NCBI GenBank assembly: GCA_041492755.1
Contig: JBGPXN010000006.1
Coordinates: 1 to 59,771, forward strand
Source of the DNA: Candidatus Methylomirabilia bacterium
GTDB lineage: Bacteria > Methylomirabilota > Methylomirabilia > Rokubacteriales > CSP1-6
Length of the DNA: 59,771 nt
Reading direction: 5' to 3'
Shown: one piece after another, positions 3,695-48,351 of the stretch
How the letters are laid out: each line of letters begins with the position of its first letter
How positions within the stretch are numbered: position 1 is the first letter of the stretch
The notes under the pieces: generated by a model
What the model was told of the DNA's origin: nothing
What the model saw: the letters and a program-made list of their open reading frames with translations, nothing else
Databases searched by the model: none
Translations under genes and position numbers: made by a program

Positions 3695-3803
3695 TAGTTC
3701 TCGGCGAAGACGTCACAGGGTCTCCGCAACCTCATTGACACCGTCTTCGAGCACCTGTAGGTTCCAGGCCACCGCAGTCTTCACTCCAGAGGAGGAGCAC
3801 ATC

Positions 3804-4388
3804 ATGAGCACTCGCCACGTCAGAGTCCTGCTGGTCACGCTCTTCGCGGCACTGCTGATCGCCTCGGTGCCCGGCTCGGCCCACGCCCAGGCAACGTCCC
3901 TGTTCCTCAAGATCACCGGGATCAACGCGCTCGTCGGGTGCGGGCTCTCGTTAGACGCCCGCCACAAGGGCGAGATCATCCTGCGCAGCGTCGAGGAGAA
4001 CATCTTCCACCCGACCGATCCCATCACGGGCCTGCCGCTCGGTACCTCAGTGGATGGCCGCACCCTCAAGGTCGTCAAGGATCCGGACCCGTGCAGCCCG
4101 ACCCTCTTCCTGACGATGCTCCAAGACCGCTTGGTCCAGGAGATCAACATCTTCTTCGTCAGGACGGTCGCGGAAATCCCACGCGAGGTCGCGACCATCC
4201 GCGCCAGCGACGTCCAGATTGTCGGGATCAATCTGGCGAGTAACGCGGGCGGTGCCGCGACCGAGATCGTGTCCTTCGCGCTGTTGGGCCAGCTGCAGCT
4301 CACGGTGTTGAAGTTCGACGAGACAACGGGCCAGCCCGCCGGGTCTATCACGACCTGCTGGAGCTTCGCGGCTAACAAGCGCTGCTGA
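3804..4388 (+). CDS. hcp: Hcp (type VI secretion tube)-like protein with N-terminal Sec signal peptide
   Basis: GGAGGAG RBS and signal peptide ending AHA-Q. Hcp-like pattern FLKITG..G.S.D..HKGEI, K..D..SP.L, I...DV.I, E.VSF, and C-terminal W....NK. Confidence 0.75.
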   Translation: MSTRHVRVLLVTLFAALLIASVPGSAHAQATSLFLKITGINALVGCGLSLDARHKGEIILRSVEENIFHPTDPITGLPLGTSVDGRTLKVVKDPDPCSPTLFLTMLQDRLVQEINIFFVRTVAEIPREVATIRASDVQIVGINLASNAGGAATEIVSFALLGQLQLTVLKFDETTGQPAGSITTCWSFAANKRC

Positions 4389-44330: not shown

Positions 44331-44683
44331 GTCCCGGCAAGGATTTCCGATGCGCGGCCCCTTGTCAAGACGCACAGGGCTGCGCCTTTGACGGTGCACA
44401 CGCCGGCCCGGTAGAGTCTCGCCGGTGATCGCCCGGCCCGCTGCGCTGCCACCGAAGCTGCTCCGGCGGGAGTTCGCGATCGAGGACGCCACCGAGGCGC
44501 GCCTGCGTCCGCGCGGTGGACTTCGAGAGTGGCCGCGCGCTGTGCGCCCCCGATCTCGTCGCGTTCGGCACGGTCGCCGAGTTCGTGGTCGGCCTCGACG
44601 GCGTGGTTCCATCTATACTCTTTACCCGGGCCGCGGGGCACGAAGCCGACAGTTCCCGACGGGCGCTCTGCTACCATGTCGTC

Positions 44684-45082
44684 ATGCGCGGCGCTGACCG
44701 GGATGCGGTGGGCGCGATCTCGGAAGTGTTCCAGCAACACCCCGGGGCCCGTCTCGCTATCCTCTTCGGCTCCCGCGCGCGTGCAGACGGCACCGCGGCA
44801 TCCGACTGGGACATCGGATACCTGGGTGACGAGTGTGTGGATCGTGACCGCCTGATGACCGACCTCGTCTACGCCCTCGACACCGACCGTGTCGATCTCG
44901 TCGATCTCGAGCGCGCCGGCGGGCTCGTGCGCTTCCGTGCGGCCCGTGACGGCATTGCCGTGTTCGAAGCGTCGCCTGACGCGTTCGAGCGCTTCTGGCT
45001 CGAGGTCGTGACCTTCTGGTGTGACGCCGGCCCCGTCATCCGGGCCGGTTACGACGAGCTGCTGGCGGAGCTTCCGCGCTGA
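44684..45082 (+). CDS. mntA: Minimal nucleotidyltransferase (MNT) antitoxin, type VII TA
   Basis: LFGSRARADGTAASDWDIG (GSx10DxD) and VDLVDL. Confidence 0.88.
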   Translation: MRGADRDAVGAISEVFQQHPGARLAILFGSRARADGTAASDWDIGYLGDECVDRDRLMTDLVYALDTDRVDLVDLERAGGLVRFRAARDGIAVFEASPDAFERFWLEVVTFWCDAGPVIRAGYDELLAELPR

Positions 45083-45498
45083 GCGCCCTCGATCGAGAGG
45101 TACTCGCGGAAAAGGTCGCCGCCGTGCAGCGGCACCTCGCCCGCGTGAGTGAGCGTCTCCCGGAAAATCCGGTGGATCTTGCGCCATCGACGGATGCATC
45201 GGATGCCGTGATTCTGCACCTATGGCAGGCCGTGCAAATCGTCATCGATCTGGCGGTGTCGGCCTGCTTGCATCTGAAGCTCGGCACACCGAGCACGTAT
45301 GCGGACGCGTTTCGCCGGCTGGCGGACGCCGGCCATGTGGAGCGCGAGCTCGCCGCCCGCCTCGAACGCGCGGCCGGCTTCCGGAACGTCGTGGCGCACG
45401 CGTACGAGAGGCTTGACATGACTCGGGTGCATCGCGGGGCCCGCGACGGGCCCGACGACCTCCGCGCATTCCTCGGGACCCTCAGCCGCCTGGTCTGA
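45079..45498 (+). CDS. hepT: HEPN (DUF86) ribonuclease toxin
   Basis: RNVVAHAY (Rx4HxY) and PSTYADAF. Start probably CTG 45079, overlapping the mntA stop; GTG 45124 is the alternative. Confidence 0.85.
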   Translation: MSALDREVLAEKVAAVQRHLARVSERLPENPVDLAPSTDASDAVILHLWQAVQIVIDLAVSACLHLKLGTPSTYADAFRRLADAGHVERELAARLERAAGFRNVVAHAYERLDMTRVHRGARDGPDDLRAFLGTLSRLV

Positions 45499-45561: not shown

Positions 45562-46092
45562 CTACCGCGGCTTGGCGTACCCTTCCGCGAGCAGCGTGCG
45601 CGCGACGTCAACGCCGCCGACGTAGACGTCGGCCACGATGCGGCCGTAGGCATCCTCCGCGCGGCGCACGATCGTCACCGGGCCCGAGTGGAGCAGCGCG
45701 ATGAGGCGCTGCGTGGCGGCGGCGGCCCCCGGCTGGCCCAGCTCGGGCGTGTCGATCCCGCGCAACCGGATGGCTTCGGGGCCGACGTAGAACGTATCGC
45801 CGTCGTGGACGTGGATGCTGCCCGGCGTCACCGTCTGATGGCTGGCGCCCGCGGCCTGGGTCACGGACGGGGTGCCTCGACGCGCATACCTCCACGAGTG
45901 GACCCGGACTCCCACGCGGTGATGGGGTGACGCCCCGAGGCGCGGCTGCCAGCGGACGTGGGCGGCGTTTCGGAGCGGAGCCGGCGCCGCGTGGGCGGCC
46001 CGAACGTGGGAGGGCAACGAGGCGTGAAGGGTTGCGGCCTCGACACGCAGCGGCAGCAGAGCCACGGCGAGAATAAAGACGATGCGTTTCAT
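45562..46092 (-). CDS. Secreted thermonuclease (SNase) family protein
   Basis: GGAGG RBS, signal peptide, basic linker; HDGDT, IRLRGIDTPE, DAYGR, EGYA. Confidence 0.88.
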   Translation of the reverse strand: MKRIVFILAVALLPLRVEAATLHASLPSHVRAAHAAPAPLRNAAHVRWQPRLGASPHHRVGVRVHSWRYARRGTPSVTQAAGASHQTVTPGSIHVHDGDTFYVGPEAIRLRGIDTPELGQPGAAAATQRLIALLHSGPVTIVRRAEDAYGRIVADVYVGGVDVARTLLAEGYAKPR

Positions 46093-46536
46093 GGTCGCCT
46101 CCGTCGTTGATGAATGCGCCCGGTCGCACATTCGACGTGCGACGGTGGCGAGTCGTTTGTGTCTGATCTTTGATACGGTGCGTGGCACCGGAGGCGCGGC
46201 GCCAGGTGACTCAGCCGTCACTCCGGCGGCGGCATAAACGGTGTCCGGCGTCGCCCAGGTGGGGCCGGCGCCGTCGGCTGGGGCGAGGCTTGCTGCCTCA
46301 GGAGCCCTCAGGGGCCGTAGGCACAAGCAGCGACCGGGCTTTGGAATTCTTACGCTCCCCGGGCGCCTCGGACAAGACGAACGTCCCCTTCACCGGCCGT
46401 GGCCAGGAAGAACCTGGGCCGCTCAAAGGCGCGAACGCATGACGGGAACGCCTCGTGCACTCGCCGTGGCCGAGGCGCTCAGCGAGCCTGCCACGCCCCT
46501 GGGAGACGCTATTGCGTTACGTGACCAGGACGTCGT

Positions 46537-46668
46537 TCATTTTGTGACGAGGAATGGGAACTCCTCCGCCTTGGCCTTCCCCCCGCCCTTCACGTTCTTG
46601 ACGTCCTTGGGCGCCAGATCCTTCGTCGCCACGCGCTTCCGTGCCTGCGCCTTGCTCTTCTTCGCCAT
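46537..46668 (-). CDS. Small basic peptide with double-glycine-type leader (43 aa; frameshifted extension to 46517)
   Basis: GGAGG RBS plus ATG; MAKKSKAQARKRVATKDLAPKDVKNVKGG|GKAKAEEFPFLVTK*. Codons look coding (AAG/GAC/GTC-rich). The -1 frame continues KMNDVLVT*. Confidence 0.65.
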   Translation of the reverse strand: MAKKSKAQARKRVATKDLAPKDVKNVKGGGKAKAEEFPFLVTK

Positions 46669-46856
46669 GGCCCAGCCTCCCGTTCGAAGATTCACTCCAG
46701 TACGAACTGACCCAGCACATCCTGCGTCGGCCCCGCGCGGCGCGCAAGTCATCGATTCGACGGTGCCGACGTACCGCCGCGAGGCGCCGATCGGGCATCG
46801 CGCCATGATTCGGCGCCGGTCGGCGACGGGCCGCCCGATCTCGACGCGCTACCCGG

Positions 46857-47124
46857 TCAGGAAGCCCACGCGCCGGCGGCCGAAGAGGTCCAGCGGATCA
46901 CGCGCTTGTTCAGTTGACTCTCGTCGACCTCCAGCCCGAGCCCCGGCGCGTCCGAGAAGACGAACTTCCCCTTCACCGGCCGCACCGGCGGCTTGAACCC
47001 CACGTCCTGGATGTCCCGGGGCCCGCTGTACTCGGCCGGGTGGTGCGAGTGCGTGAGCGAGGCCACGAAGTGCAGGTTCGCGGTGTGGCCGATCGAGGGC
47101 TGCGTCCGGTGGACGGGCTTTCAT
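46857..47124 (-). pseudogene. Mandelate racemase/muconate lactonizing enzyme remnant (start codons joined out-of-frame to the C-terminus)
   Basis: ATG-AAA at 47124, then in another frame VHRTQPSIGHTANLHFVASL..AEY...DAPGLGLEVDE (enolase-superfamily C-terminal PGLG motif). Confidence 0.65.
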
Positions 47125-47145
47125 GGACGTGACGGACGACCCGGT

Positions 47146-48351
47146 TCAGACCACGCCGTCGGCCTTCAGGCGCGCGAGATCCTCCGCGCCGAGCGACAGC
47201 CACTCCTTGTAGATCTCGGCGTTGTGCTGGCCGAGCAGCGGTGCGGGGGTGATCTGCGTCGGTGACTTCGAGAGCTGCACCGGGTTGCCGGGCATCGTGA
47301 ACTCGCCCCAGCCCGGGTGCTGGATCGTGGTCACCATGCCGCGCTCCTTGAGGTGCGGGTCCGTGAGGATCTCGGCCGGCGTGAGGCAGGCACCGGCGGG
47401 GACCCCGGCCTTGCCCAGCGCGGCCATCACCTCGTGCTTGGTCTTCGTCAGCGTCCACGTTTCGACCAGCTTGTCGACCTGGTCCTTGTGGTCGCTACGC
47501 CACTTGGGCTCGGACCACTCCGGGTGGCCGACGAGGTCGTCGCGATCGATCGTGCGCAGCAGCGCGTCCCACATGTGGCGGCGCACCGGCTGCGGATAGA
47601 TGTAGGCGTAGTCATCGGCGCCGCCCGGCTTGCAGCGATAGATGCCCGAGGGCGAGGAGTTGGGAATGTCGTTGCCGCGCCGCGAGTCGGACTGGCCGCC
47701 GGAGTAAACCAGCCGCATGGCGACGCGGCAGAAGTTGACCACCGCGTCCTGCATCGACAGCTCGACGCGCTGGCCCTGGCCGGAGGCTTCGCGCTGCCAC
47801 AGCGCGGCCATCACGCCGAAGGCCGCGTGCACGCCGGTGCCGGAGTCGCCGATGGTCGGGCCCGGCTTGAGCGGCGGCGAGCCGGGGAAGCCGGTCAGCG
47901 TCATCGCGCCGCCGGTGGCCTGGGCGATCATGTCGAAGCTCTTGTACTCGCTGTACGGCCCGTACGTCCCGAAGCCCTTGACCGAGAGGTAGATCAGCCG
48001 CGGATTGATCTTGGCGAGCGCCTCGTAGCCGAGCCCGTTCTTCTCCAGCGCGCCCGGCGCTTGGTTCTCGGCGACGACGTCCGCCTTCTTGACCATGTCG
48101 AGGAACATGGCCTTGCCCTGCGGGTGCTTGAGGTTCAGCGTGACGCTGCGCTTGTTGGAGTTCAGCGTCAGGAAATAGCTGCTGTCCACGCCGGGCTTCT
48201 CGGCGCGGCCATAGCGGCCCGGCTCGCCCTTGCCGGGCTCTTCCACCTTGATGACGTCGGCGCCCAGCCAGGCCAGGAGCTGGGTGCAGGAGGGGCCGGC
48301 CTCGAACTGGGTCAGGTCCAGGACGCGGATGCCGTTCAGGGCTTTGCTCAT
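47146..48351 (-). CDS. CoA-transferase family III (formyl-CoA transferase-like)
   Basis: [49 protein letters not shown]. Confidence 0.92.

Follow-up and report, generated by a model that had tools for sequence, protein, structure and literature searches.

Layout and reading frame of the peptide gene

The window analyzed here is the whole 59,771-nucleotide (nt) stretch of contig JBGPXN010000006.1 from a Candidatus Methylomirabilia bacterium (assembly GCA_041492755.1), and the element in question is a small peptide gene on its minus strand, between positions 46517 and 46668. We consider it probable (roughly 0.6) that this gene is a frameshifted and probably decaying member of a new, exporter-dependent peptide family whose cores derive from the tube protein Hcp. 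Below, G000 denotes the genome of the window, while other labels beginning with G, L and P denote genomes, loci and database proteins, respectively. The gene comprises the following features, all on the minus strand:

46676..46681 (-): Shine-Dalgarno-like GGGAGG, read from the sequence, with a 7-nt spacer to the ATG
46582..46668 (-): leader, codons 1-29, MAKKSKAQARKRVATKDLAPKDVKNVKGG, with a basic N-terminus and D-13, L-12, D-8, V-7, V-4, G-2 and G-1
46540..46581 (-): truncated core as encoded, codons 30-43, GKAKAEEFPFLVTK, compared with orthologues in a DNA alignment
46543..46548 (-): site of a 1-nt deletion relative to the orthologues (GTC GTC AAG -> GTC A-C AAA), from DNA alignment A2
46537..46539 (-): TGA stop created by the frame break, from reading the open frame
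46517..46540 (-): out-of-frame remnant of the second strand of the Hcp hairpin, MNDVLVT followed by TAA, in the -1 frame

The open reading frame (ORF) begins with the ATG at 46668-46666 and has 43 codons, MAKKSKAQARKRVATKDLAPKDVKNVKGGGKAKAEEFPFLVTK, up to the TGA, with VKGG at residues 26-29. In the -1 frame, letters 46540-46517 read ATG AAC GAC GTC CTG GTC ACG TAA. The first-pass annotation of this DNA, made by a model from the letters alone, had described the ribosome-binding site, the start, the frame and the MNDVLVT tail correctly in every sequence detail, for a gene that lies on the minus strand. The 43-residue peptide has no Pfam match, its only NCBIfam match is a 12.5-bit chance match to a ZntA ATPase model (cut-off 1240 bits), and its truncated core matched Hcp neither in Pfam nor in a panel of Hcp proteins. 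No promoter or terminator was found in a consensus scan of 46200-47200.

A family of leader peptides in Rokubacteria

In a collection of 5.8 billion proteins, a word-indexed search yielded 19 homologues (49-68 residues), which have the leader MAKKSKAQARKR..KDLAPKD.K.VKGG in common and most of which also have the core ...RKAGKGQQEFLVVKMNDVLITGV. A profile of 20 sequences matched 88 proteins at E<=1e-3 and 11 at E<=1e-10 among 1.84 billion cluster representatives, most of them peptides of 40-70 residues, and the family loci in named genome records (n=4) all come from Rokubacteria/Methylomirabilia metagenome-assembled genomes. The build proposed in the first-pass annotation, a Gly-Gly leader joined to an Hcp-like core, is therefore found in homologues and defines a real family. 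We also surveyed 183 genomes of the window's order, using a leader-centered profile from 45 sequences. Members are present in 16 of the 183, none of these outside the family-level group of the window, and one genome has as many as 17 copies; one genus supplies 10 of these 16 genomes (10 of its own 14). Judged by its sequence, the window gene is a member of an undescribed small-gene family of Rokubacteria/Methylomirabilota, in which a basic Gly-Gly leader of about 29 residues precedes a core of 15-30 residues.

All 45 aligned sequences have M1, L-12 and G-1, conservation reaches at least 90% at D-13 and G-2, and position -7 is variable. The leader is fused to many unrelated cores that differ widely in length and sequence, and it is thus a modular element, one type of leader serving all of them. 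The ratio of nonsynonymous to synonymous substitutions (dN/dS, Nei-Gojobori) for the leader was 0.15-0.24 between orthologues and 0.21-0.25 for the window leader against orthologues, the latter from small counts; these values point weakly to coding constraint. Assembled sequence from environmental samples gives the same picture of a leader that occurs with different cores: the summed depth of Logan contigs over 46591-46683, the leader stretch, was up to 10x that of the flanks in four sediment metagenomes, and the contigs diverge exactly at the leader-core junction, with loose ends at 46583 and 46611. These sediment communities evidently contain many copies of the leader joined to other cores. 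The search for longer proteins with the leader gave one weak match, P0106, which has no true leader, and no leader fused to a full-length Hcp.

Cores as segments of Hcp and of other proteins

The Pfam family T6SS_HCP, named for the type VI secretion system (T6SS), gave matches at E<=10 in 13 of the first 20 members found, over positions ~80-107 of its hidden Markov model (HMM) and with a best E of 9.4e-4; the first member scored 13.4 bits against a cut-off of 23.5 bits. Within the family, only partial matches below the cut-off were obtained, none of them to a full-length Hcp. In its commonest form, RKAGKGQQEFLVVKMNDVLITGV, the core matches residues 82-104 of a canonical Rokubacterial Hcp (the G026 protein; canonical Hcp is found in G017 and G026, at 126-139 bits) at 78-88% identity, and the Hcp strand that had been recognized in the window's peptide is a property of the family's cores. 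Other cores map elsewhere on the same protein, with residues 3-17, 39-65, 76-110 and 133-154 covered at 54-88% identity. Besides the commonest hairpin core, the segments are distributed as follows:

Hcp residues 3-17: cores of L047 and P0052
Hcp residues 39-65: cores of L037, L045, L060, L061, P0007 and others
Hcp residues 62-84: cores of L058, L067, L088 and L023
Hcp residues 118-138: cores of L082 and L025
Hcp residues 133-154: cores of the third gene of L037 and of L032

Taken together, the family cores tile most of Hcp. At L037 (G061:C18, 3033-3574), three leader-peptide genes stand in tandem, the first with a core from Hcp residues 39-62 and the third with one from residues 133-154; the second core, AVAKAKLGELSMS, has no parent assigned. 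Its appearance is that of a single Hcp gene divided into parts, each with its own leader.

When compared with a panel of eight Hcp proteins, 19 of 75 distinct genome-derived leader peptides matched at E<=0.01, all 19 best to canonical Hcp and none best to the Hcp-like proteins with signal-like N-termini that are described below; Pfam adds three further matches to this set. For the peptides with a basic leader from the protein databases, the count was 49 of 73, in a set gathered with a profile that itself included the hairpin. Not all cores come from Hcp. Two score above the Pfam cut-off for DUF1559/SBP_bac_10 pseudopilin-like proteins, one with the N-terminal end (HMM 10-28) and the other with the C-terminal end (HMM 222-261); a third covers the first part of a Tox-PAAR-like domain, at 26.2 bits against a cut-off of 31. 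The core at L054 (G121:C6, 180-317), DVGTYTVSTHIRRIYSKLG, has its match in the part of a GerE/LuxR helix-turn-helix that contains the recognition helix (E 0.005, 16.8 bits), which means that the cores are not drawn only from envelope machines. For about 50 of the 75 cores, no parent was identified with Pfam or the Hcp panel, and the motif D.ASGLPTGKRQ(H/Y), found in L027, L056 and L075, was likewise not assigned to one.

Two supposed likenesses, one of L062, L063, L072 and P0070 to the C-terminus of type III secretion needles and the other of L068 to a gp19-like tail-tube motif, were dropped, since Pfam searches at E<=10 and PDB sequence searches returned nothing for either. Structure prediction of an intact member with AlphaFold2, from a 20-sequence alignment, was uninformative (mean predicted local distance difference test, pLDDT, 58.5; predicted template modeling score, pTM, 0.15; no secondary structure). 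In the ESM Atlas, the closest entries were unnamed clusters at 0.90, and the nearest named ones, type-A lantibiotic at 0.77 and ComC at 0.76, were too weak to be used. Apart from the leader peptides, two long acidic proteins, P0042 (203 residues) and P0090 (668 residues), have a PAAR-like ...P.PYPN motif that is followed in each by two copies of the Hcp hairpin motif (ARKAGGEQQEYL.VKMED...). The hairpin is apparently used as a module outside Hcp and outside the leader-peptide family.

Hcp-like genes in the same genomes

G000 has two Hcp-family genes. That of the window, at 3795-4385 (+), scores 43-44 bits on PF05638, has a hydrophobic, signal-like N-terminus and ends in Cys; the second, G000:C174:5180-5740 (-), scores 58 bits and also has a hydrophobic, signal-like N-terminus. 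Hcp-family genes of G035, G061 and G062 start with such segments as well, all of these being judged by eye, and the signal-bearing proteins may form a class of Sec-exported Hcp-like proteins. Among five genomes tested for TssC (PF05943), it was absent from G000, G035, G061 and G062 and present in G017, which also has the canonical Hcp. An Hcp-family gene occurs in 12 of the 16 peptide-bearing genomes versus 40 of the 167 others; 11 of the 12 have only low-scoring Hcp-family genes (<=80 bits) and one has a canonical Hcp, while 17 of the 40 have a gene scoring at least 114 bits, and all of these counts are dominated by one genus of related, and hence not independent, genomes. The functional link that had been suggested between the peptide and the window's Hcp gene (placed at 3804) is, therefore, retained as co-occurrence only: the two lie 42 kb apart, and the cores resemble canonical rather than signal-bearing Hcp.

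The same annotation had named self-assembly into fibres as one possible role and also offered the idea, which can be applied to the whole family, that exported Hcp-strand peptides cap, poison or regulate tubes by beta-strand addition, the putative targets being either the T6SS of rivals or the producers' own Sec-exported Hcp-like proteins. We regard this as improbable. In its favor, the cores copy segments of canonical Hcp almost exactly and between them cover most of the protein, DUF1559 pseudopilin-like and PAAR-like proteins, which are parts of other polymerizing or spike structures, have supplied further cores, and Hcp-family genes accompany the peptides in the proportions given above, the six that were read (from four genomes) having signal-like N-termini, with TssC absent from all four peptide-bearing genomes among the five tested. 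On the other hand, the partner strands of the hairpin are already occupied in folded Hcp, canonical Hcp assembles in the cytoplasm of the attacker, beyond the reach of an exported peptide, and it is this canonical Hcp that the cores match, not the Sec-type proteins. Moreover, the GerE helix-turn-helix fragment is not part of a nanomachine, some 50 of the 75 cores have no identified parent, and the co-occurrence is carried largely by a single genus.

A broader version of this idea seems to us just as doubtful, namely that the peptides, up to 17 per genome, would be an exported "cut-out library" acting as dominant-negative strand or helix mimics of polymerizing envelope machines. Its parents would be six or more segments of Hcp, a PAAR-like spike tip and both ends of DUF1559 pseudopilin-like proteins. 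If true, the library would represent a peptide counter-measure against contractile injection systems, or a new control of the producers' own exported Hcp-like proteins.

The leader and its putative exporter in related genomes

The consensus of double-glycine leaders is hydrophobic at -4, -7 and -12 and acidic at -8. The leader of the window fits it with V-4, V-7, L-12 and D-8, and in the family as in the window it ends in Gly-Gly directly before the core. Independent of the leader itself, the position of the genes points in the same direction. A profile built without the exporter-linked peptides (A1) weakly matched small ORFs lying a few kb from a C39 peptidase gene in G061 (E 0.08 per genome) and G062 (E 0.04 per genome), and each of these two genomes has a single C39 peptidase gene. 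In G062, the order is exporter, HlyD adaptor, sigma-54 activator and three leader ORFs, with a fourth leader ORF on the other side; the small ORFs have a basic N-terminus, KDL and ...VKGG or VQGG. The exporter is a protein of 1044 residues with two domains that bind cyclic nucleotide monophosphates (cNMP), followed by Peptidase_C39, ABC_membrane and ABC_tran, the last two being those of an ATP-binding cassette (ABC) transporter. Its best NCBIfam matches are type_I_sec_HlyB (554 bits) and TIGR03796, the NHLP bacteriocin exporter (540 bits), both under the cut-off. The loci in G061 and G116 are arranged like that in G062.

This HetC-like type of exporter (C39 at least 113 bits; open frames of 595 to 1251 residues) was found in eight genomes of the order. 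Leader peptides occur in all seven of those that belong to the peptide-rich genus, and in five of these (G062, G061, G116, G118 and G114) one lies within about 6 kb of the exporter on the same contig. The eighth, G039, has the exporter without a family member. As the genomes are related, these counts overstate independence. The location of leader peptides near a C39 ABC exporter and HlyD fits a double-glycine export leader, and the leader assignment made from the window alone is strengthened both by this linkage and by the modularity of the leader. As for a C39 transporter in genomes that carry the peptide, it is linked to the peptides in relatives, but no C39 domain was found in G000, for which the assembly is 88% complete.

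For intact members, we propose that the leader would dock on the C39 domain of the HetC-like exporter (two cNMP-binding domains, C39, transmembrane domain, ATPase), that it would be cut after Gly-Gly, and that the core would then leave the cell through the exporter and the HlyD adaptor, as for class II microcins.

Enzymes that would mark a peptide synthesized ribosomally and modified post-translationally (RiPP) were not seen among the Pfam matches of ORFs of at least 110 or at least 150 residues in the loci L003, L008-L011 and L035-L037. The sets of ATP-grasp, Alpha-E and transglutaminase genes are thought to act on peptides, and at L011 (G176:C710, 3467-3855) two tandem members stand directly upstream of an operon of circularly permuted ATP-grasp, Alpha-E and transglutaminase, an adjacency seen once.

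The frame break and probable decay of the window copy

Three orthologous loci, L008, L009 and L010, read GTC GTC AAG ATG where the window is one base short in the DNA alignment. The in-frame MNDVLIT of the orthologues is nearly identical to the out-of-frame tail of the window, and at the DNA level this tail is close to the in-frame ATGAACGAC(G/A)TC(C/T)TGATCA(C/G)(C/T) of the three loci. The suggestion that one base should be restored to recover the hairpin thus agrees with the DNA of the orthologues at the break. The leader DNA is conserved relative to the orthologues, while in the core 15-18 nt were lost in frame after Gly-Gly and the GKGQQ motif is replaced by KAEEFPF. Since the sequence beyond this point has diverged little from the orthologues, a recent break is probable.

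An assembly error is an obvious concern for a 1-nt deletion. Logan contigs from four other sediment-metagenome runs cover the site ungapped, with 0-2 mismatches (X2, 46250-46644; X3, 46266-46668; X4, 46250-46644; X8, 46535-47095), and list no indels within 46517-46668; the same frame in four other runs means that the deletion is not an error of one assembly, keeping in mind that the four may share one sampling campaign and that minor variants can be lost from contigs.

The peptide shares its 90%-identity cluster with a single further sequence, P0107 (54 residues), which agrees fully with the window peptide through FLVTK and then has a different 3' end, and no intact version of the window variant was found among the 5.8 billion proteins. 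The one other leader-family match in G000, at G000:C198:1059-1216 (+) (L049), has a good ribosome-binding site and an in-frame TGA at codon 8, MAKGKRT-TGA-RSVPKTTKGVKIKNLQPKAAQPVKGG (also written MAKGKRT*RSVPK...PVKGGATIIEYGFLASTARPIRK).

The first-pass annotation had also raised a -1 slip on A-AAA, and programmed ribosomal or transcriptional slippage beside the TGA would restore the full hairpin in some of the products. The sequence ACA AAA TGA does let tRNA-Lys re-pair one base back, after which the -1 frame reads MNDVLVT and a stop. An X XXY YYZ heptamer is, however, lacking, as re-pairing is impossible for the ACA in the P site; no other member is broken at this place, all 19 homologues and the orthologous loci being in one frame; and the window core has other lesions as well. 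Of all the explanations considered, this is the most improbable. Use of TGA as a sense codon was rejected, since the zero frame beyond the TGA is not conserved and the -1 frame is.

The window copy is probably a decaying relic: its frame is broken relative to orthologues at a syntenic locus, and other signs of decay are found around it. The 1-nt deletion ends the core of the window copy after 14 residues, with GKGQQ gone through further indels, in a genome in which the neighboring MR_MLE (enolase-superfamily) gene is mostly deleted, the other leader gene has an in-frame stop and no C39 exporter was found at 88% completeness. The window copy is chiefly a record of the decay of such genes after what appears to be the loss of the export system. 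The earlier description had recognized a frame-broken peptide and missed its likely decay.

Points against this reading and the remaining alternatives

Several observations weigh against the exporter-dependent, decaying member that we favor. Eight of the 16 peptide-bearing genomes, including the 97% complete G035, show no C39 domain, which indicates either that the peptides are not strictly exporter-dependent or that many copies are orphans. No curated leader model matches: NCBIfam returned nothing for the leader in the window peptide and 13 small members, no Pfam leader family was hit, and the sole Pfam trace on the leader side is a match of one member to Bacteroid_pep at E 0.13. Among orthologues, the dN/dS of the core is noisy, at 0.23-0.99 over very few sites. 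In G000, contig C174 ends inside an ABC-exporter gene, the last 113 residues of which are 55% identical to the G062 exporter, a value to be seen next to the 31-35% identity of seven uninterrupted full-length exporter matches in the same genome; the cut gene is followed by an MGMT-like gene and not by HlyD. Given this fragment and the 88% completeness, the absence of the exporter from G000 is not secure, and we consider it likely, not proven. Finally, the ribosome-binding site, start codon and leader of the window gene are intact and the frameshifted form was assembled in four other runs, so that a 43-residue product could still be made and used.

This last point leads to the strongest of the alternatives, which we nevertheless hold to be rather unlikely: that the 43-residue product is a functional short variant with an active 14-residue mature peptide, GKAKAEEFPFLVTK, the break being diversification of the core and not decay. 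The intact GGGAGG, ATG and leader, the leader dN/dS of 0.21-0.25, the recurrence of the frame in the four runs and the wide variation in the length and sequence of the family's cores would all agree with it. Decay is better compatible with an out-of-frame tail that remains near the orthologues' in-frame sequence, as after a recent break, with the deletion of the neighboring MR_MLE gene, the premature TGA in the second leader gene and the failure to find C39 in G000, and with yet another 3' end in the sister P0107.

A second alternative concerns the family as a whole. The N-terminal part might be the working part, as a Gly-Gly-ended tag or an intracellular micro-protein with dispensable tails and no export, and such a role would account for a leader that is far better conserved than the cores and for the eight peptide-bearing genomes without a C39 domain. 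We find it very unlikely, as the peptides are linked to the exporter operon in five genomes, as the hairpin core and the position of its stop are conserved across dozens of 50%-identity clusters, as variants with an acidic leader (P0074, P0094, P0101 and P0105) keep the same hairpin core, and as no ligase-type genes were seen beside the loci inspected.

Comparison with known systems

Class II microcins are described in PMC12219008 as small proteins with a double-glycine signal, encoded near and exported by peptidase-containing ABC transporters. The family resembles such microcins and bacteriocins in having small precursors with a Gly-Gly leader and, in relatives, a linked C39-ABC exporter and HlyD. 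It differs in the leader, which is longer (29 residues), has a strongly basic N-terminus and matches no curated model, and in the cores, which copy segments of known cellular proteins. We know of no immunity gene or antibacterial activity for the family.

The exporter in relatives shares the cNMP-binding, C39 and ABC architecture of HetC from Nostoc as described in PMC10986499; according to the discussion of that paper, the physiological substrates of HetC-type exporters have not been identified. The peptides are of interest as a candidate substrate set for a HetC-type exporter in an uncultured phylum of soil and sediment. To our knowledge, few substrates of peptidase-containing ABC exporters have been identified outside the Enterobacteria and Firmicutes.

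With the NHLP/Nif11 systems, the family shares an exporter that reaches 540 bits on TIGR03796 and precursors that are scattered over the genome (as many as 17 in one), the leader being conserved and the cores varying, as is also known from prochlorosin-type systems. It differs from them in an exporter score short of the 853 bits set as cut-off for TIGR03796, in a leader that bears no relation to those of NHLP/Nif11 and has no NCBIfam match, and in the inspected loci, which showed neither a lanthionine synthetase nor another modifying enzyme. Hcp/TssD itself (PF05638, TIGR03344) is related to the family through cores that are 54-88% identical to canonical Rokubacterial segments and through partial T6SS_HCP matches; a family core, however, comprises 15-30 residues of a domain of ~130 residues, scores below the gathering threshold and forms no barrel, and TssC is absent from the four peptide-bearing genomes among the five tested. 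MicroProteins, a concept from plants, are small proteins made from the interaction domain of a larger protein, which act as dominant negatives inside the cell and have no export leader. The family is similar to them as a set of short stand-alone genes that copy one structural element of a multimerizing protein, and dissimilar in having an export leader.

The unexpected part of these results is Hcp tiled by separately encoded leader peptides. We found no description of this in literature searches judged from their listings, nor any published account of double-glycine peptides made from Hcp segments; the papers returned concern Pseudomonas chlororaphis genomes and, going by their titles, surveys of soil communities, and PMC12219008 contains neither Hcp, Rokubacteria nor words beginning with Methylomirabil-. 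The way in which the cores were made is also unexpected: they copy short stretches of an existing protein, most often the hairpin that is best conserved in Hcp. An interaction of the mature peptides with Hcp-type tubes would represent a novel type of interference with contractile injection systems, and without one the family would remain a clear case of new secreted peptides arising from fragments of cellular genes.

Neighboring genes and signs of rearrangement at the locus

The surroundings of the peptide gene in the window contain the following further features:

46424..47111 (-): block homologous to the MR_MLE 3' end, peptide gene and downstream flank of related genomes, from blastn
46857..47111 (-): MR_MLE remnant, last ~84 codons; Pfam MR_MLE_C positions 158-218 of 219, E 6e-8
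46358..46399 (-): another copy, of 42 nt, of the segment at the MR_MLE 3' end; it lies downstream of the peptide gene and forms direct repeat D2 with 46941-46982 (88% identity)

By blastn, the block is 76% identical to L009 over 727 nt, and its part at 46580-47111 is 82% identical to L010 and 72% to L008. Homology to the orthologous loci is limited to the stretch from 47111, where it stops, down to ~46424, and thus includes the last ~84 MR_MLE codons, the spacer, the peptide gene and ~100 nt beyond. In L008, L009 and L010, the MR_MLE gene is full and the peptide gene follows directly after it, and in L008 and L010 the peptide gene is convergent with an alanine dehydrogenase gene. In the window, a CoA-transferase gene abuts the MR_MLE remnant on its upstream side. 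The repeat at 46358-46399 also matches the MR_MLE 3' end of L010, and the 42-nt repeats on both sides of the peptide gene are a sign of an old duplication or rearrangement at the locus. Further along the window, a Polbeta nucleotidyltransferase gene and a HepT-like ribonuclease gene at 44516-45498 (+) form a pair in the usual MNT/HEPN toxin-antitoxin arrangement, and an SNase-like gene at 45562-46323 (-) adjoins this pair.

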